DNA of 64,000 nucleotides, taken from sequence record OL956808.1, one strand, 5' to 3'. Origin of the DNA: Escherichia phage vB_EcoM-S1P5QW. Positions 41,913 to 60,981 of the stretch are shown here, one piece after another (position 1 is the first letter of the stretch; each line of letters opens with the position of its first letter). The position numbers were made by a program, and so were the translations under genes. Under the pieces are notes generated by a model. The model searched no databases and was not told the DNA's origin. It worked only from the letters and a program-made list of their open reading frames with translations.

Positions 41913-41985
41913 TGGGAATTAGCCAAGTTGGTAAGGCACTGGATTTTGATTCCAGGATGCAAAGGTTCGAGTCCTTTATTCCCAG
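41913..41985 (+). tRNA. tRNA-Gln (anticodon UUG); CCA not encoded
   Basis: Cloverleaf folded by hand: acceptor tgggaat/attccca, anticodon loop ttTTGat, T-loop ggttcgagtcc. Confidence 0.85.
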
Positions 41986-41986
41986 C

Positions 41987-42073
41987 GCGAGAATGGTCAA
42001 ATTGGTAAAGGCACAGCACTTAAAATGCTGCGGAATGATTTCCTTGTGGGTTCGAGTCCCACTTCTCGCACCA
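41987..42073 (+). tRNA. tRNA-Leu (anticodon UAA), type II
   Basis: Acceptor gcgagaa/ttctcgc, anticodon loop ctTAAaa, long variable arm, encoded CCA; abuts tRNA-Gln (dimeric precursor as in T4). Confidence 0.85.
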
Positions 42074-42078
42074 AATTT

Positions 42079-42152
<74 letters not shown>

Positions 42153-42198
42153 ATTTATGTCTCGTCGTGAGACGCTCAGTTCTTTATTAGGGACTGAT

Positions 42199-42807
42199 AT
42201 GCATTTTTATCTTTATAAAATAACAAATAAAATTAATAATAAAATTTATATTGGTGTGCATTCTACCGAAAATTTAGATGATGGATATATGGGTTCTGGT
42301 AAATTATTAAAAAGAGCCCAAGATAAATATGGTATAGAAAATTTTTCTAAAGAAATATTAGAGTATTTTGATGATAAAGAATCTATGCTTGAAGCCGAGA
42401 AAAATATTGTCACAGAAGAGTTTTTAAATAGACCAGATGTGTATAATTTAAAACTTGGAGGTGAAGGTGGATGGGATCATATAAATAATTATCCTATGAC
42501 AGATCAGCAACGCGAATTAATTTCATTGGGTGTTAAAAAGGCACATTCTAACGGAAAATTAAAAGGATGGTCTTCAAATGGATTAATGAAAAATGGCTTT
42601 GCTGGTAAAACTCATTCTCAAGAAGCTAAACGTAAAATAGCAAAAGCAAACGAAGCAAAAGTTTCTGCGAATGAAAGAAAAAGAAGAATAGAAATTTCTA
42701 AATTATATGATTTTTCTAAGCGGGGTGAATTATCTAAATATGCTAAGCATATTGGCGTAAGTCATACTCAAGCAAAAAGAATTCTAAATCAAATTAACAA
42801 TATATAA
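42199..42807 (+). CDS. segB: GIY-YIG homing endonuclease, SegB-like
   Basis: GIY-YIG signature FYLYKITNKINNKIYIGVH...YMGSG; track ORF (42157) begins just after tRNA-Gly, ATG at 42199 has an RBS; inside the tRNA cluster as T4 segB. Confidence 0.75.
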   Translation: MHFYLYKITNKINNKIYIGVHSTENLDDGYMGSGKLLKRAQDKYGIENFSKEILEYFDDKESMLEAEKNIVTEEFLNRPDVYNLKLGGEGGWDHINNYPMTDQQRELISLGVKKAHSNGKLKGWSSNGLMKNGFAGKTHSQEAKRKIAKANEAKVSANERKRRIEISKLYDFSKRGELSKYAKHIGVSHTQAKRILNQINNI

Positions 42808-42813
42808 ATATTT

Positions 42814-42903
42814 GGAGGCGTGGCAGAGTGGTTTAATGCACCGGTCTTGAAAACCGGCAGTCGCTCCGGCGACTCATAGGTTCAAATCCTATCGCCTCCG
42901 CCA
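42814..42903 (+). tRNA. tRNA-Ser (anticodon UGA), type II
   Basis: Acceptor ggaggcg/cgcctcc, anticodon loop ctTGAaa, long variable arm, encoded CCA. Confidence 0.85.
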
Positions 42904-42908
42904 GTTTT

Positions 42909-42984
42909 GCTGATTTAGCTCAGTAGGTAGAGCAACTCACTTGTAATGAGAAGGTCGGCGGTTCGATTCCGTCAATCAGCACCA
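42909..42984 (+). tRNA. tRNA-Thr (anticodon UGU)
   Basis: Acceptor gctgatt/aatcagc, anticodon loop ctTGTaa, T-loop ggttcgattcc, encoded CCA. Confidence 0.8.
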
Positions 42985-42985
42985 A

Positions 42986-43060
42986 GGCCCTGTAGCTGGA
43001 AGGTTCAAGCAAGCGACTCATAATCGCCAGATGGTGGTTCAATTCCACCCAGGGCCACCA
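42986..43060 (+). tRNA. tRNA with CAU anticodon (Ile2-type as in T4, or Met)
   Basis: Acceptor ggccctg/cagggcc, anticodon loop ctCATaa, encoded CCA. Confidence 0.75.
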
Positions 43061-43069
43061 AATTAATTT

Positions 43070-43156
43070 GGGGAGTTATCCCGTAGAGGTAGCGGTGTGG
43101 ACTGTAAATCCATTGTCATTGCGACTCGGGTGGTTCGACTCCATCACTCCCCACCA
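43070..43156 (+). tRNA. tRNA-Tyr (anticodon GUA), type II
   Basis: Acceptor ggggagt/actcccc, anticodon stem gtgga/tccat with loop ctGTAaa, long variable arm resembling E. coli tRNA-Tyr, encoded CCA. Confidence 0.7.
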
Positions 43157-43160
43157 ATTT

Positions 43161-43235
43161 GGATGTGTAGCTCAATGGCAGAGCGATCGCCTGTTAAGCG
43201 ATTGGTTATAGGTTCGAATCCTATCACTTCCGCCA
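43161..43235 (+). tRNA. tRNA-Asn (anticodon GUU)
   Basis: Anticodon stem atcgc/gcgat with loop ctGTTaa, T-loop ggttcgaatcc, encoded CCA; one U-U mismatch in acceptor stem. Confidence 0.7.
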
Positions 43236-43349
43236 AATTTGTGACAACTGTCACATTAATATCTACTTGACGCGATTATCGGGGTTGAACTGATCACTCT
43301 TCTCTTAATTTCGTGTGAAGACATCTTGATTGTTGGAGTAGGTATTAAT

Positions 43350-43425
43350 GTGGCCGTAGTTCAGTTGGTAGAACTCGAGATTGTGATTCTCGTAGTCATG
43401 GGTTCGACTCCCATCGGTCACCCCA
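43350..43425 (+). tRNA. tRNA-His (anticodon GUG)
   Basis: D-stem gttc/gaac, anticodon stem cgaga/tctcg with loop ttGTGat, T-loop ggttcgactcc, discriminator C and CCA; no encoded G-1. Confidence 0.7.
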
Positions 43426-43429
43426 ATTA

Positions 43430-43505
43430 CGGGGCATAGCTCAGAAGGAAGAGCAAGGACCTTCTAAGTCCTGGGTCGTAGGTTCGATCCCTACTGCCTC
43501 GACCA
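43430..43505 (+). tRNA. tRNA-Arg (anticodon UCU)
   Basis: Acceptor cggggca/tgcctcg, anticodon stem aggac/gtcct with loop ctTCTaa, encoded CCA. Confidence 0.8.
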
Positions 43506-43850
43506 AACAAGAAGCCGGGTCGCTACCGGTAAGTCGTCGGACTGATGTTCCCTGGGTAAGGACTGGCATTAACAAATCTTTACGATCGGTTAATGCCCCC
43601 TTACATCACAGCAGAAACGGCGCACCGAATTATCGATTCGAGGAAATATCTTTGCCGTAAGCCGAGTAGCGTTTTTGACGGAACGTTCGGATATGGTCGA
43701 GATATGGCCTTTTAAAATATTAAGTAGCGTCAACTGCTTAATAACCGGGTTCGAATCCCGGCGTTTCGTACAAACACTTGCCTTAGCAGGTGGAACCCCG
43801 ACAAGGTTGCCGCAAGGCTTAGCCCCGACCGAAAGGTTGGGGCTTTTTAG
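43506..43850 (+). ncRNA. stable small RNA region (T4 RNA C/D-like) ending at an intrinsic terminator
   Basis: 345 nt without a credible ORF right after tRNA-Arg; tRNA-like T-arm ccgggttcgaatcccgg at 43745-43763; ends with hairpin plus T-run 43822-43850; T4 has two stable RNAs here (recalled). Confidence 0.4.
43822..43850 (+). terminator. intrinsic terminator (copy 1)
   Basis: agccccgaccgaaaggttggggc + TTTTT; near-identical copy at 44377. Confidence 0.7.
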
Positions 43851-56375: not shown

Positions 56376-56538
56376 AAAGCAGATGTTTTTAATGAAACTA
56401 ATTGAAGAATATGCTAATGCAGTTTCTGACTATGAATGTTCTTCTCGGGAAAGAGGTACAGCTTTCGCCAAAGAAGAAATGAAAATCATGGTTGATGCTC
56501 ACACAAAGCTTCAGAATTTTATTGAAAACGTCATTTAA
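56365..56538 (+). CDS. hypothetical small protein
   Basis: 57 aa ORF not in track; aggtgg RBS; overlaps upstream 3' end. Confidence 0.35.
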   Translation: MKTEKQMFLMKLIEEYANAVSDYECSSRERGTAFAKEEMKIMVDAHTKLQNFIENVI

Positions 56539-56540
56539 TG

Positions 56541-56571
56541 GTTTACAAGTTGGCAAGGTTATGGTATAGTA
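56541..56571 (+). promoter_or_regulatory. early promoter
   Basis: GTTTAC, -10 tggTATAGT. Confidence 0.5.
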
Positions 56572-56702
56572 ATCTTGTCAACTTCCAAGGAGAAGAGAAT
56601 GAAAGTTTTGTTTGTTGTGTATGTGATGATTCAATATAATTACCCAATGTTTACTTATAATTTGGTAAACAACATTATTGATATGATTCAGAGGAGTATG
56701 TA

Positions 56703-56888
56703 ATGACAAGTGAGCAGGCTTTTAAATTAAGAGAATTAATTGAGACGTATAGTAAAGCTGTTCATACATCAACAATTATTGATGAATCAGCTTTCTCCGG
56801 ACATGCTAACAAGATTAAATACAAAACTCTTATGGAAGAAGCTAAAGTAAATCTTGATTCTTATATTGAAACTTTAATTGGTAAATAA
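56703..56888 (+). CDS. hypothetical small protein
   Basis: 61 aa; gaggag RBS; preceded by early promoter and a 34-codon mini-ORF. Confidence 0.45.
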   Translation: MTSEQAFKLRELIETYSKAVHTSTIIDESAFSGHANKIKYKTLMEEAKVNLDSYIETLIGK

Positions 56889-56889
56889 T

Positions 56890-57432
56890 ATGAAAGCTGT
56901 AATTGAAACAACTGATTTGTTCGGTGACCTAGTTATCGAAAAACGCGGTAATGTATACGTTCTGACGCAGGAAGACGATAGTATTACTATTCTTCCTATG
57001 GAACTGGCTGCGATTTTATCTTATGCTCCCTCAGGAGTTACCGGTGTAACTAATATTACAGGTGACCTCCAAGTTCGTTTTTATCGTGGCCTTTACGGCG
57101 GTAATATTGAAACTGAATTTATGTGTCTTTCTATCAACAATTGGGCAACATTCGTTGCCAAGGTGAAAGAATTCTTAGAATCTGAAACAGCCGAAACACC
57201 CGAAAAGGCTAAACTTCAATGGGCTAAAGATCGCGGTGCTAACATTATTAATCCAGTAGCTGCAAACTATACTACGACTTTGGATGTCAAGACTTCTTAT
57301 GAAGATGGCGATGTCGTACTTGTTCGCCAAAATGATGATTCTCGAGCACATATTGTCACATTTACCAAAGACGAAGCTATTGCGCTAAAGACTTATCTTG
57401 ATTCTGTCATTCCAACTATGATTTCAAAGTGA
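56890..57432 (+). CDS. hypothetical protein, tandem paralog A
   Basis: Track ORF starts at TTG 56878; ATG at 56890 gives 180 aa; C-terminus EAIALKTYLDSVIPTM resembles that of the next gene. Confidence 0.5.
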   Translation: MKAVIETTDLFGDLVIEKRGNVYVLTQEDDSITILPMELAAILSYAPSGVTGVTNITGDLQVRFYRGLYGGNIETEFMCLSINNWATFVAKVKEFLESETAETPEKAKLQWAKDRGANIINPVAANYTTTLDVKTSYEDGDVVLVRQNDDSRAHIVTFTKDEAIALKTYLDSVIPTMISK

Positions 57433-57438
57433 GGAAAT

Positions 57439-57960
57439 ATGTTTATTTCAAGTGGAAGTGGTTTAATTCGTGTTGAATTTAAAAATGACATCTTTCTTAT
57501 TCAAGGAGATGATATTATTAAAATGAGTTATGACGAAATCAAGAAAATTTGTCATGCTCTTGAAAGTCATGGAAAAGTGAACGCTGTTATTGATATTGGC
57601 GATTTATGGGTGACGCTTTATGAAGTATCCGAAGGATTTAACATTGAAGATGAAAATAACATTTTAGCTATTGATAAAAGAACTGATTTGCTTGATATAT
57701 TAAAAGCCTATGAGCAGTCAAATGGCGGAAGAAAAGCTGCATTGATTTATCAAAAACCGCATTCATGTGGAACTGCTTCAATCATTTCAAATATTGAAGG
57801 CGAAGTTGATACTTATATGTGTGTTTTAAAAGCTGGTGGTGACCGTCATCCGGATTTTATTTCTATTCGTCAAAGCAATGGAGAAATTTCATTATCAAAA
57901 TCAGAAGCTGAAGCTATGATTAAGTATTTAACAACCGTTACGCCTTCAATGAAAGGATAA
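57439..57960 (+). CDS. hypothetical protein, tandem paralog B
   Basis: 173 aa; gagga RBS; C-terminus EAEAMIKYLTTVTPSM. Confidence 0.5.
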   Translation: MFISSGSGLIRVEFKNDIFLIQGDDIIKMSYDEIKKICHALESHGKVNAVIDIGDLWVTLYEVSEGFNIEDENNILAIDKRTDLLDILKAYEQSNGGRKAALIYQKPHSCGTASIISNIEGEVDTYMCVLKAGGDRHPDFISIRQSNGEISLSKSEAEAMIKYLTTVTPSMKG

Positions 57961-57962
57961 TT

Positions 57963-58424
57963 ATGATTATTAATGAAAACTCTTGGCATTATAAATTATT
58001 CAAATTGTTTAACGACGAATGGCAACGACCTAAGACACTATGCGCATATTTTTGGTCTATTGCCATTCCTACATTTTTCGTTTCTATTTTTGGATGTGCT
58101 ATACTCGTAGGGCTAACAATTATTTGTGCAGAAAGCCTACAACGTTGGCTTATTTTCGGTAGTTTATGGACTCTTCTTCCATCGGCATTTATACTTGCAC
58201 TTTTGGTTGTTTTACTTATTATCGGTTCATTTGTTATTCCTGCACATTTGCGTGAAAAATATAAAGATTATAAATGGAAAAAGGATTATGCTTTACGCGT
58301 AGAAAATATTGATAGGGCGTATAAAGGTTTACCTCCTATTCAACCCAAGAAATCGATTATCGTTGAATTTTTAAAAGCTCGTAAAGCTAAAGTATGTCCT
58401 GTTATTGAATATAAGGCTGAATGA
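57963..58424 (+). CDS. polytopic membrane protein
   Basis: 153 aa with 2-3 hydrophobic helices; translationally coupled to the downstream nucleotidyltransferase. Confidence 0.5.
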   Translation: MIINENSWHYKLFKLFNDEWQRPKTLCAYFWSIAIPTFFVSIFGCAILVGLTIICAESLQRWLIFGSLWTLLPSAFILALLVVLLIIGSFVIPAHLREKYKDYKWKKDYALRVENIDRAYKGLPPIQPKKSIIVEFLKARKAKVCPVIEYKAE

Positions 58425-59434
58425 TGAAAACAGTAATGAAAAGCTATTTTGGTAGTCATCTTTATGGAACTTCTACCCCAGAATCTGATGTAGATTTTAA
58501 AGAAATCTTTGTTCCTCCTGCTCGCGATATTCTTATCGGAAATGTCAAAGAGCACATGAGTAAAAACACTAACAACACATCATCTAAAAACACTAAAGAT
58601 GATATTGACCATGAACTATACAGTCTTAAATATTTCTTTAAATTAGCAGCAGATGGTGAAACTGTAGCATTGGATATGCTTCACACTCCACCTGAATTAG
58701 TGGTTAAATCTGATTTGCCTGATGTGTGGAAGTTTATTCAAGACAACCGTTCTCGTTTTTATACGACTAACATGAAATCATATTTAGGATATGTTCGCAA
58801 GCAAGCTTCTAAATACGGTGTCAAGGGTTCTCGTTTGGCTGCATTACGTGATGTATTGAAAGTAGTTAATCAAATCCCTGAGCAATGGGTTGATTACCAA
58901 GAAGACGGTTCCATTAAGCATCGTCGAACTAAAGTTGAAGATATTAAGCATCGTCTTCCAGAGAACGAATTCTGTGAATGGGTATTCCATAATCATGAGA
59001 AAACAGGTCCACAAACGTTCTACACTGTGTTGGGTCGTAAATATCAAACAACGCTTTCTCTCATTGAGCTTAAGCAGTCTTTGAATAAACTTGATGCTGA
59101 ATACGGCGAACGTGCTCGTAAGGCTGAAGCGAATGAGGGCATTGACTGGAAAGCTCTGAGTCATGCTTGCCGTGGTGGACTCCAACTATTGGAAATTTAC
59201 AAAACTGGTGACTTAGTCTATCCACTTCAAGATGCTCCATTTATTCTTGACGTGAAGTTGGGTAAGCATCCATTTAAAACGGTTCAAGAGTTTTTAGAAG
59301 ATGTGGTCGATCAAGTAGAAGCAGCATCTACTGAAGCTTCTAAGAACGGTATGCAGCAAAAAGTAGACATGAGTTTCTGGGATGACTTCCTTGAGAAGGT
59401 GTATCTCGAAAACCATCGAAGTTATTATAAATGA
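58421..59434 (+). CDS. Pol-beta superfamily nucleotidyltransferase-like protein
   Basis: 337 aa; N-terminal signature FGSHLYGTSTPESDVDF (G[GS]x9-13DxD) plus downstream acidic ALDMLH; ATGA overlap with upstream gene; terminator after stop. Confidence 0.6.
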   Translation: MMKTVMKSYFGSHLYGTSTPESDVDFKEIFVPPARDILIGNVKEHMSKNTNNTSSKNTKDDIDHELYSLKYFFKLAADGETVALDMLHTPPELVVKSDLPDVWKFIQDNRSRFYTTNMKSYLGYVRKQASKYGVKGSRLAALRDVLKVVNQIPEQWVDYQEDGSIKHRRTKVEDIKHRLPENEFCEWVFHNHEKTGPQTFYTVLGRKYQTTLSLIELKQSLNKLDAEYGERARKAEANEGIDWKALSHACRGGLQLLEIYKTGDLVYPLQDAPFILDVKLGKHPFKTVQEFLEDVVDQVEAASTEASKNGMQQKVDMSFWDDFLEKVYLENHRSYYK

Positions 59435-59461
59435 TAGGGAGCCTTCGGGCTCCCTTTTTTA
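59433..59461 (+). terminator. intrinsic terminator after the nucleotidyltransferase gene
   Basis: Hairpin gggagcc-ttcg-ggctccc followed by TTTTTT. Confidence 0.7.
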
Positions 59462-59484
59462 TTTCAAAAATTTTTCACAAAGTT

Positions 59485-59517
59485 GTTTACAAGCATAAAG
59501 CTTTATGGTACTATACA
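59485..59517 (+). promoter_or_regulatory. early promoter with stem-loop
   Basis: GTTTAC; inverted repeat cataaag/ctttatg in spacer; -10 tggTACTATacaactatcaact. Confidence 0.55.
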
Positions 59518-59548
59518 ACTATCAACTGATACGGATTTGGAGAATAAA

Positions 59549-60517
59549 ATGAAAACTGTAACTATCAATAAGGGTATCTACTTCGGTAAAGAAATCTCTG
59601 GAACTTTTGAGCTCTTAGGCGAATGGTTCCCAGATAATGCTCCGGTGGATGCACAAGGAGATGGTAAAGTTTTTGTTGAAATTGACGGTAAGCGTCGCGG
59701 TGTTTGGGTTTACAAATCAGACATTTCATATGATGGTGTAAAAGTTGAAGAAGTTAAAGAATCATATGAAGATATGAAAACCCGCATTAATAAAAGATTT
59801 AATGTTATGGGAATGATGACGAATGGTATTATTAACGGAAACATTCGTTCATTAATTATCTCTGGTGCGGCGGGTATTGGTAAAACGTATTCTTTAGATA
59901 AAGCTTTAAATAAAGCAAATGATATTGGATACATTGAATATAAAAGCATTAACGGTAAAATCTCCGGTATCGGTCTTTATGAACAACTTTGGAATAATCG
60001 TGAAGAGAATTCTGTCCTTTTGATTGATGATGTGGATGTTTTCTCTGATATGGACATTCTTAATCTTCTAAAAGCTGCTCTGGACACTGGAGAGACCCGT
60101 AAAGTCTGCTGGAGCACTGCATCTTCTTACTTAGAAGAAAAAGGCATTGAGCGTGAGTTTGAATTTAAAGGAACGATTGTTTTTATCACAAACGTTGACA
60201 TTGACCGCGAATTAGACCGTGGTACTAAACTTGCTCCACATTTACAAGCATTAGTGTCCCGCTCAGTTTATTTGGATTTGGGTGTTCACACTAATGAAGA
60301 AATTATGGTCAGGGTTGAAGATGTTATTCTTTCAACTGACATGATGCAAAAGCGCGGTCTTTCTGATGAAGAAACTTATAAAGCATTATCATGGATGAAA
60401 GTCAATGTTAATCGTTTACGCAATGTTTCACTGCGTACTGCTCTTTATCTTGCTGACTTTATTATGACCGACAAAAACGGTTGGGAAGAAATTGCTGAGG
60501 TTACTCTTCTGAAATAA
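59549..60517 (+). CDS. P-loop ATPase (AAA-like)
   Basis: Track ORF starts at TTG inside promoter; ATG at 59549 with ggaga RBS gives 322 aa; Walker A GAAGIGKT, Walker B VLLIDDVD. Confidence 0.6.
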   Translation: MKTVTINKGIYFGKEISGTFELLGEWFPDNAPVDAQGDGKVFVEIDGKRRGVWVYKSDISYDGVKVEEVKESYEDMKTRINKRFNVMGMMTNGIINGNIRSLIISGAAGIGKTYSLDKALNKANDIGYIEYKSINGKISGIGLYEQLWNNREENSVLLIDDVDVFSDMDILNLLKAALDTGETRKVCWSTASSYLEEKGIEREFEFKGTIVFITNVDIDRELDRGTKLAPHLQALVSRSVYLDLGVHTNEEIMVRVEDVILSTDMMQKRGLSDEETYKALSWMKVNVNRLRNVSLRTALYLADFIMTDKNGWEEIAEVTLLK

Positions 60518-60923: not shown

Positions 60924-60955
60924 GTTTACAAGACCGTTCCTCTGTGGTACTATAC
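60924..60955 (+). promoter_or_regulatory. early promoter with stem-loop
   Basis: GTTTAC; inverted repeat gttcctc/gaggaac brackets -10 tggTACTATacaactatcaact. Confidence 0.55.
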
Positions 60956-60981
60956 AACTATCAACTACGGAGGAACACAAA

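Follow-up and report, generated by a model that had tools for sequence, protein, structure and literature searches.

Escherichia phage vB_EcoM-S1P5QW (sequence record OL956808.1) was analysed over a stretch of 64,000 nucleotides, called here the window, in which positions 57,963 to 59,434 carry two overlapping genes, one for a small membrane protein of 153 amino acids (aa) and one for a nucleotidyltransferase (NTase) of 337 aa. The source phage is T4-like (Tequatrovirus): the DNA of this region is 97.8% identical to Tequatrovirus ECO4 and 97-98% identical to many Tequatrovirus genomes. An earlier, sequence-only reading of this DNA had seen in the two genes a coupled module of unknown function. 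Judged by its sequence, the 337-aa protein is the ortholog of T4 NrdC.11, which very probably belongs to the RlaP family, and the discussion below centers on this enzyme and on its possible place in phage RNA repair. The features of the locus are the following:

57963..58424, + strand: membrane-protein open reading frame (ORF), 153 aa, PHROG 944 (ORF, hydropathy)
58421..59434, + strand: NrdC.11 ortholog, RlaP (PF10127) nucleotidyltransferase, 337 aa (ORF, T4 identity, Pfam, PHROG, AlphaFold2 model)
58421..58424, + strand: ATGA start/stop overlap joining both ORFs (sequence)
59436..59463, + strand: intrinsic terminator with 8-bp GC-rich stem, UUCG loop and T-tract, ending the transcription unit
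56542..56570, + strand: best upstream sigma-70/T4-early-like promoter match, TTTACA-17-TATAGT with TG (10/12 consensus matches)

The ORF list places both genes at the coordinates that the sequence-only reading had given, and the overlap that it had described is visible in the DNA. The ATG of the NTase ORF (58421-58423) shares bases with the TGA of the membrane ORF (58422-58424), and the N-terminus of the 337-aa product of 58421-59434 reads MMKTVMKSYFGSHLYGTSTPESDVDF. A second in-frame ATG at 58424 serves as the start in the GenBank records of the 336-aa T4 and ECO4 orthologs; with this alternative start, the gene shares one base with the upstream stop and its product has 336 aa. The strong terminator said to close the pair is likewise borne out: the stem-loop at 59436-59455 has 6 GC pairs in its 8-bp stem and a UUCG loop followed by TTTTTTATTT, with a predicted free energy of -17.7 kcal/mol (z = -3.56 versus shuffles). 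Because the best upstream promoter match is found at 56542, the transcription unit probably extends from a group of small ORFs through the NTase gene, and the element at 56542..56570 would be its likely start, ahead of these small ORFs, two successive y05I genes, the membrane gene and nrdC.11.

Over its full length, the 337-aa protein shares 98.2% aa identity with T4 NrdC.11 (NP_049709, 'uncharacterized 38.9 kDa protein in nrdC-mobD region'), which carries the RefSeq label 'nucleotidyltransferase' and has the same downstream neighbour, nrdC.10. It matches Pfam PF10127 ('RlaP, RNA repair pathway DNA polymerase beta family') with E = 1.9e-11 and 44.6 bits against a gathering threshold of 23, the match spanning residues 7-135 only, or profile positions 23-142 of 249, and it matches PHROG 388 ('nucleotidyltransferase') with E = 7e-137. 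A recent preprint also puts T4 NrdC.11 in PF10127, within cluster 5 of a sequence similarity network (bioRxiv 10.64898/2025.12.29.696909). The sequence-only reading had found no T4 function to which the protein could be assigned, a view superseded by the 98% identity to T4 NrdC.11, the Pfam membership and the name given in the preprint. Homologs of the NTase are abundant, with 1517 phage records containing one and matches (E <= 1e-3) to the representatives of 3440 clusters built at 50% identity. Since the gene is catalogued in T4, the family stands in Pfam and RefSeq and the general repair hypothesis appeared in the 2025 preprint, all three are already known; what the present analysis adds is the recognition of the T4-type long form as an RlaP architecture of its own.

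The name RlaP stems from an RNA ligase gene linkage observed by Burroughs and Aravind, as recounted in the same preprint (bioRxiv 10.64898/2025.12.29.696909). In that work, Carruthers, Fatma and Huang describe two enzymes, PfRlaP from Pseudomonas fluorescens and PaRlaP from P. aeruginosa, that favour Mn2+, show low specificity for the nucleoside triphosphate (NTP), add 1-2 nucleoside monophosphates (NMPs) to the 3'-OH of RNA and stop there (bioRxiv 10.64898/2025.12.29.696909). Both are inactive on DNA and protein, E. coli proteins not being labelled; they favour cleaved-tRNA mimics, and a cleaved anticodon loop's 5' half over the acceptor end, and in total RNA they label rRNA- and tRNA-sized species, full-length tRNAs included (bioRxiv 10.64898/2025.12.29.696909). 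The crystal structure comprises an NTase domain and a helical domain, the product suits 5'-phosphate RNA ligases, and the authors propose that RlaP restores nucleotides taken by 'smart' ribotoxins such as RloC (bioRxiv 10.64898/2025.12.29.696909).

The Pol-beta signature noticed at the N-terminus of the window protein, GS-x10-DxD, is real and no chance match. In an alignment of 119 relatives with 34-54% identity, G11, S12, Y132, K244, H248, R251, P268 and K279 are invariant, and D23, D25, N57, D61, D63 and D85 are conserved in at least 90%; the five Asp residues among the latter (D23, D25, D61, D63, D85) are 95-99% conserved in an overlapping second set of 146 sequences. The Pfam score given above points in the same direction. 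An AlphaFold2 (AF2) model built on the 119-relative alignment reaches a predicted local distance difference test score (pLDDT) of 94.4 and has NTases as its best fold matches, in agreement with the proposal of a Pol-beta-fold NTase with an intact catalytic signature. The protein can be divided as follows:

58421..58774, + strand: N-terminal catalytic NTase domain, residues ~1-118 (conservation, hhalign, DSSP)
58451-58456, + strand: G11-S12
58487-58495, + strand: D23-x-D25
58601-58609, + strand: D61-x-D63
58673-58675, + strand: D85
58775..59128, + strand: long helix 119-150, beta-rich subdomain ~155-209 and helix 214-236 (AF2 secondary structure)
59129..59431, + strand: C-terminal helical domain with the invariant K244, H248, R251 (59150-59173), P268 and K279

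Compared by hhalign with 15 canonical short RlaPs, residues 2-131 align with a probability of 94.3%, the whole-protein alignment ending at 131. In this alignment, D23/D25 pair with D22/D24 of the short forms, D63 with their invariant D55 and D85 with their invariant E77; by DSSP on the AF2 model, D63 belongs to strand 62-68 and D85 to helix 81-87. The motif ALDMLH, which contains D85 and had been put forward as a further acidic element of the active site, is indeed conserved but probably does not supply the canonical third carboxylate, because D63, in a strand, aligns with the third Asp, and D85, in a helix, with a Glu.

Like the characterised RlaPs, NrdC.11 possesses a homologous N-terminal Pol-beta domain with the GS...DxD...D signature, followed in the AF2 model by a helical C-terminal domain, and its relatives are encoded beside RtcB, Pnkp, Hen1 and Rnl1. 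Unlike the canonical forms of ~250-290 aa, it is a long form of ~320-340 aa with a long helix and a beta-rich subdomain as extra elements; nothing in the aligned part of canonical short RlaPs corresponds to the region 58775..59128, and residues 156-167 are gapped in >50% of the relatives. The helical domain at the C-terminus is presumed to form the substrate-binding side of the cleft. Foldseek comparison with the PDB returned weak matches (E about 4e-3) to kanamycin NTase, 3c18 and Hailong HalB. The top ones, the ANT(4') kanamycin nucleotidyltransferase and 3c18, likewise join an N-terminal Pol-beta NTase domain to a C-terminal helical (HEPN-like) domain; the 1kny, 3c18 and ANT-4' matches have TM-scores of only 0.24-0.40 with 7-8% identity. 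Neither a PDB sequence search nor a search with the 119-sequence profile produced relatives of the NTase, in a copy of the database that does not hold the PfRlaP structure. In BFVD, the same fold occurs in many phage and giant-virus 'nucleotidyltransferases'.

The genomic surroundings of the relatives were inspected in two sets: 80 bacterial and archaeal loci with full-length relatives (32-54% identity), whose neighbours within 8 kb were clustered and scanned with Pfam, and 80 IMG/VR contigs encoding an NTase 35-52% identical to the window protein, with flanks of 6 kb. Relative to the query used in each case, the full-length relatives are 33-62% identical. In the cellular set, RtcB, Pnkp, Hen1 or Ro60/TROVE lies within 8 kb in 15 of the 80 loci. 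RlaP (17) and PNKP_ligase (5) are the most frequent families among the 143 genes at positions -1 or +1, which also include RtcA, RtcB and a T4-type RNA ligase. A canonical short RlaP follows the long form directly in 14-17 of the 80 loci (L014, L017, L029, L030, L033, L041 and L044; L063, L064, L066, L068, L078, L080 and L085), often with overlapping stop and start, and the short partner matches PF10127 with E values down to 1e-81. This tandem arrangement suggests that long and short RlaPs do different jobs or act together.

T4 itself encodes pseT, rnlA and rnlB. In the viral set, an HD phosphohydrolase, an ATP-dependent ligase, RtcB, an HD-kinase fusion or Rnl1 is found within 6 kb in 41 of the 80 contigs (RtcB, Rnl1 or the fusion in 22). 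Counted by locus, HD phosphohydrolases are present in 18 (at +1 in 16), ATP-dependent ligases in 13, RtcB in 13, HD-kinase fusions in 9 and Rnl1 in 7; other neighbour clusters brought out by the Pfam scan carry a Pnkp-type HAD phosphatase domain, an AAA_33 kinase or an HD_4 domain. Two cassettes recur, NTase-HD phosphohydrolase (16 loci) and NTase-ATP-ligase...RtcB (10 loci). Homologs of T4 PseT (36-38% identity) and RnlA (31-37%) occupy positions -1 to +2 in about a dozen contigs, and in one contig of 4 kb (L013, 80-3803) the order is NTase, PseT-like, RnlA-like. Further compact cassettes of viruses and metagenome-assembled genomes combine the NTase with PseT homologs, whole or reduced to the phosphatase domain, and with RnlA homologs (besides L013, L151-L155, L159 and L163, as well as L097, L098, L108, L109 and L160). 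The long form is thus repeatedly encoded, in other viruses, beside homologs of T4 Pnk and Rnl1, RtcB and HD phosphohydrolases.

RNA repair was discovered in T4, where Pnk and Rnl1 reverse the cleavage of tRNA-Lys by PrrC. Other host nucleases such as RloC excise a nucleotide, and simple resealing then gives a dead tRNA. With this background, we lean towards NrdC.11 being an RlaP-type RNA 3'-end nucleotidyltransferase with a role in phage RNA (tRNA) repair. By analogy with the Pseudomonas enzymes, there is a good likelihood that it extends RNA 3'-OH ends; a specific service in anti-RloC-type repair is proposed tentatively. Family membership, conservation of catalytic residues, fold and the link of the relatives to RNA-repair genes were observed here, and the evidence for activity comes from Pseudomonas short-form RlaPs only; we infer that NrdC.11 shares their activity, acts on tRNA in vivo and cooperates with Pnk and Rnl1.

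In the mechanism that we envisage, G11-S12, D23, D25 and D63, aided by D61 and D85, would bind two divalent metals and the NTP, and one or a few NMPs would be moved, without template, onto an RNA 3'-OH that the cleft would hold against the helical domain of the C-terminus (K244, H248, R251, K279). The substrate in the infected cell would be tRNA cut and trimmed by host anticodon nucleases. T4 Pnk (PseT) would turn the 2',3'-cyclic phosphate end into a 3'-OH, NrdC.11 could then put back the one or two lost nucleotides, and Rnl1 (RnlA), which requires 3'-OH and 5'-P ends, would seal the break; the 3'-OH left by RlaP is the very substrate that Rnl1 requires in the known T4 pathway directed against PrrC. 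The greatest benefit would be expected against nucleotide-removing nucleases such as RloC. If NrdC.11 does re-add a nucleotide, it would constitute a third enzyme of the phage repair pathway and a further round of the arms race, and the presence of NrdC.11-like genes beside PseT and RnlA homologs in uncultivated viruses makes the idea directly testable.

Several observations weigh against this proposal. Only the N-terminal ~130 residues of NrdC.11 align with RlaPs of the characterised type. The C-terminal halves fall into the expected register, in which K244-x3-H248-x2-R251 would correspond to K-x3-Y-x2-R of the short forms, but with an hhalign probability of only 1.1%; because of this low probability, we regard NrdC.11 as a long-form RlaP variant with a diverged substrate-binding half. 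The extra beta subdomain could mean a different substrate, and since long and short forms often stand in tandem in bacteria, they are probably not redundant. Half of the viral and four fifths of the bacterial loci have no repair gene in the flanks examined, and a search of the other genes of the window revealed no second RlaP or RNA-repair gene. In T4, nrdC.11 is not a recognised component of the tRNA repair pathway and is located about 80 kb from pseT and rnlA. With weak NTP specificity, only some of the repair events would bring back the right nucleotide. The preprint labels T4 NrdC.11 an 'RlaP of unknown function' (bioRxiv 10.64898/2025.12.29.696909). Finally, T4 tolerates laboratory deletion of the nrdC.11-mobD.3 region, which fits an accessory role and gives no phenotype (PMC9825161); such dispensability is what would be expected of a conditional accessory gene.

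Other activities can be imagined for the NTase, and the sequence-only reading had suggested three of them: 3' end repair of phage tRNAs, nucleotide second-messenger synthesis or mimicry, and nucleotidylation of a host factor. The idea of tRNA end repair came nearest to the mark, but its CCA-adding version and the second-messenger version lack support in Pfam, PADLOC or fold. An enzyme of the CCA-adding or 3'-end-repair type, which would finish phage tRNAs devoid of an encoded CCA or mend nibbled acceptor ends, is very unlikely. The tRNA-Gln of the window (41913-41986) does lack an encoded CCA, as had been pointed out, and RlaPs, which extend RNA at its 3'-OH, also label tRNAs of full length when given total RNA. 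However, no CCA-adding or poly(A) polymerase match was obtained in Pfam (E <= 0.1) or among the listed fold matches; the characterised RlaPs discriminate little between NTPs, stop at 1-2 nucleotides and prefer the cleaved anticodon loop's 5' half to the acceptor end, and the ligases, kinases and phosphatases to which the relatives are linked would be superfluous for 3'-end maturation. T4 tRNAs without CCA reportedly depend on the host cca enzyme, a result said to go back to Deutscher, Foulds and McClain in 1974. Tailing of RNA for another purpose, such as marking the 3' ends of host or phage mRNA or small RNA for decay or stabilisation, would be compatible with a family activity that amounts to generic RNA 3'-OH extension, rRNA- and tRNA-sized species all being labelled, with the separation of nrdC.11 from pseT and rnlA in T4-like phages and with an apparently early-type transcription unit, as judged from a promoter-consensus match only. 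We consider it unlikely: the relatives are repeatedly found beside end-healing and sealing enzymes, a ligase, kinase and phosphatase context that suits tailing for decay less well than repair, the characterised RlaPs favour damaged-tRNA mimics, and a decay signal would be expected to be longer than 1-2 nucleotides.

Still less is to be expected of the nucleotidylation of a protein or small molecule, be it AMPylation of a host factor, an aminoglycoside-NTase-like reaction or a cyclic or linear nucleotide signal of the kind made by cGAS/DncV-like NTases (CD-NTases), to which we assign a very small probability. The divergent C-terminal half of the long form would leave room for such a substrate, but kanamycin NTase, CD-NTase/SMODS and minimal nucleotidyltransferase (MNT) families gave no threshold-passing match in Pfam, NCBIfam or PADLOC, no cGAS, DncV or CD-NTase stands among the fold matches listed, RlaPs did not label E. 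coli proteins or DNA, and the context of the relatives is RNA repair rather than defence-signalling effectors. The individual candidates were rejected on similar grounds. A CD-NTase of the cGAS-DncV kind has no Pfam, PADLOC or listed fold match and no effector-like neighbour; an aminoglycoside NTase has the low TM-scores of 0.24-0.40 and no Pfam match, and the known enzymes act on small molecules; an MNT antitoxin, typically ~100-140 aa and paired with a HEPN toxin, would have to be reconciled with scores of 13.3 bits for MntA (cutoff 60) and 13.6 for NTP_transf_2 (cutoff 21) and with a length of 337 aa.

The remaining alternative involves the membrane protein and brings back the module of the sequence-only reading. 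The hydropathy profile of the 153-aa protein has two hydrophobic stretches, spanning residues ~27-57 and ~62-93, and its tail is strongly basic; its AF2 model, of low confidence (pLDDT 63), consists of two long helices. It most likely folds as a two-transmembrane hairpin with a basic cytoplasmic tail, so that the term 'polytopic' is generous for it. Its family is marked by an N-terminal SWHY..P-x2-LC-x-YFW motif and by (F/Y)LKA(R/K)K-x-K(V/I)CP at the end of the tail. It is represented by 23 clusters among 5.8 billion proteins, all from phages or metagenomes, and is fast-diverging and confined to T4-like phages; no Pfam family above threshold and no NCBIfam or PDB assignment was obtained. Within residues 7-31 and 133-149, the S-W-H residues, C27 where the first hydrophobic segment begins, and C145 in the KVCP motif are invariant, a pattern suggestive of a metal site, a disulfide bond or lipidation on the side predicted to face the cytoplasm.

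That this protein and the NTase form a functional pair, either as a Hailong-like system whose membrane channel is gated by an oligonucleotide that the NTase makes, as a phage decoy feeding such a channel of the host or through membrane tethering of the NTase, has very little probability in our view. The stop/start overlap, the single terminator closing the pair and the conserved motifs on the strongly basic cytoplasmic tail speak for it, as does the position of a membrane homolog 0-3 genes upstream of RlaP in several T4-like genera, even at 26-31% identity. The membrane gene directly precedes the NTase gene in Tequatrovirus, as also in P0278-type contigs, whose version shares 57% identity with the membrane protein of the window; it stands one gene upstream in a contig with a 29%-identical homolog, two genes upstream in Acinetobacter phage DLP3 (Lazarusvirus) and three in Klebsiella phage JD18 (Jiaodavirus). 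On the other hand, JD18 and DLP3 do not have the two genes side by side, and the one to three upstream genes examined in RB43, AS-gz, Va3 and KPN8 do not include the membrane gene; in Proteus phage Pm5461, an unrelated 59-aa transmembrane (TM) protein is encoded upstream, and a weak N-terminal match lies about 2 kb upstream. The membrane protein was found in 915 phage records, against the 1517 of the NTase. TM proteins occupy position -1 in 7 of 76 viral loci, against a background of 11.9%, and are therefore not enriched, and no membrane family recurs beside the bacterial relatives (80 loci, Pfam). In 31 of 71 viral loci, the NTase start overlaps the preceding gene or follows it at no more than 5 bases, and these upstream partners are unrelated and of all kinds.

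The most telling comparison is with T4, whose NrdC.11 is 98% identical although its 168.9-kb genome holds no homolog of the membrane protein (tblastn at E <= 10 gave noise only and the family hidden Markov model no match) and has mobD at that position. The window carries two tandem y05I-family paralogs (PF24449, PF24448) at 56890-57960, followed by the membrane gene, and T4 carries at 56429-57828 one y05I gene (mobD.1), followed by the HNH homing endonuclease gene mobD. The upstream neighbour of nrdC.11 is hence mobD in T4 and the second y05I paralog with the 153-aa membrane gene in the window, and the insertion of mobD in T4 appears to have replaced the latter two. The membrane gene is dispensable for the retention of the NTase. 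Because junctions of this kind are common (31/71), TM genes are not enriched and T4 lacks the membrane gene, the overlap and the shared terminator are ordinary phage packing, and the coupled module is not supported, nothing specific speaking for a functional pairing. We take the membrane gene to be an unrelated accessory gene of the same early unit, a neighbour of the NTase with no demonstrated partnership.

The likeness to Hailong (HalA membrane channel and HalB NTase; Tan et al. 2025) lies in the order of a membrane protein followed by an NTase. HalB, however, has ~217 aa, makes oligo-dA and belongs to a host defence gene system in which pairing with the HalA channel is obligate, whereas the present NTase has 337 aa and dispenses with its neighbour in T4. 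The structural match to HalB is that of the common NTase core alone (128 residues, 15% identity), no sequence-level match to HalB or HalA was found in the PDB, RlaPs are RNA-specific without DNA extension, and PADLOC gave no meaningful-score match for the NTase, the membrane protein or NrdC.10. A version for T-even-type phages, in which the fast-evolving two-TM protein and the RlaP make up a Hailong-like membrane device gated by nucleic acid or a decoy supplying the oligonucleotide that holds a host channel of the Hailong type closed, and T4 lost the membrane half when mobD invaded, is disfavoured and strikes us as highly improbable.

The conserved gene order is not specific to the membrane/NTase pair, because rI upstream or NrdC.10 downstream is equally kept in several of these loci. 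NrdC.10 (window 59549-60517) is an AAA/STAND-like P-loop protein with weak Pfam matches only, and it is maintained 0.6-0.9 kb downstream of the NTase in JD18 (75% identity) and DLP3 (66%). Kept downstream in both phages, it accompanies the NTase more constantly than the membrane protein does; it was not found beside the bacterial or IMG/VR relatives.

The window also encodes a tRNA cluster at 41913-43771 comprising 11 genes, for Gln, Leu, Gly, Ser, Thr, Met(cat), Tyr, Asn, His, Arg and Lys(ttt), the last of which was called at the unusual length of 94 nucleotides. T4 has 8 tRNA genes (Arg, Ile, Thr, Ser, Pro, Gly, Leu and Gln). Anticodon nucleases of the PrrC and RloC types target tRNA-Lys(UUU), and Tyr, Asn and His are targets of the colicin E5 type. 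Extra tRNA copies could offer a second route around tRNA-cleaving defences.

Past the terminator, a T4-early-like promoter match at 59486 precedes the next gene, nrdC.10. This promoter-like element, TTTACA-17-TACTAT with TG, is repeated together with its leader at 59486-59540 and 60925-60980, the two copies preceding nrdC.10 and a gene at about 60980, and because of this repetition the mechanical ORF list contains N-terminal extensions that start at TTG, share 'GTIQLST' and are spurious.

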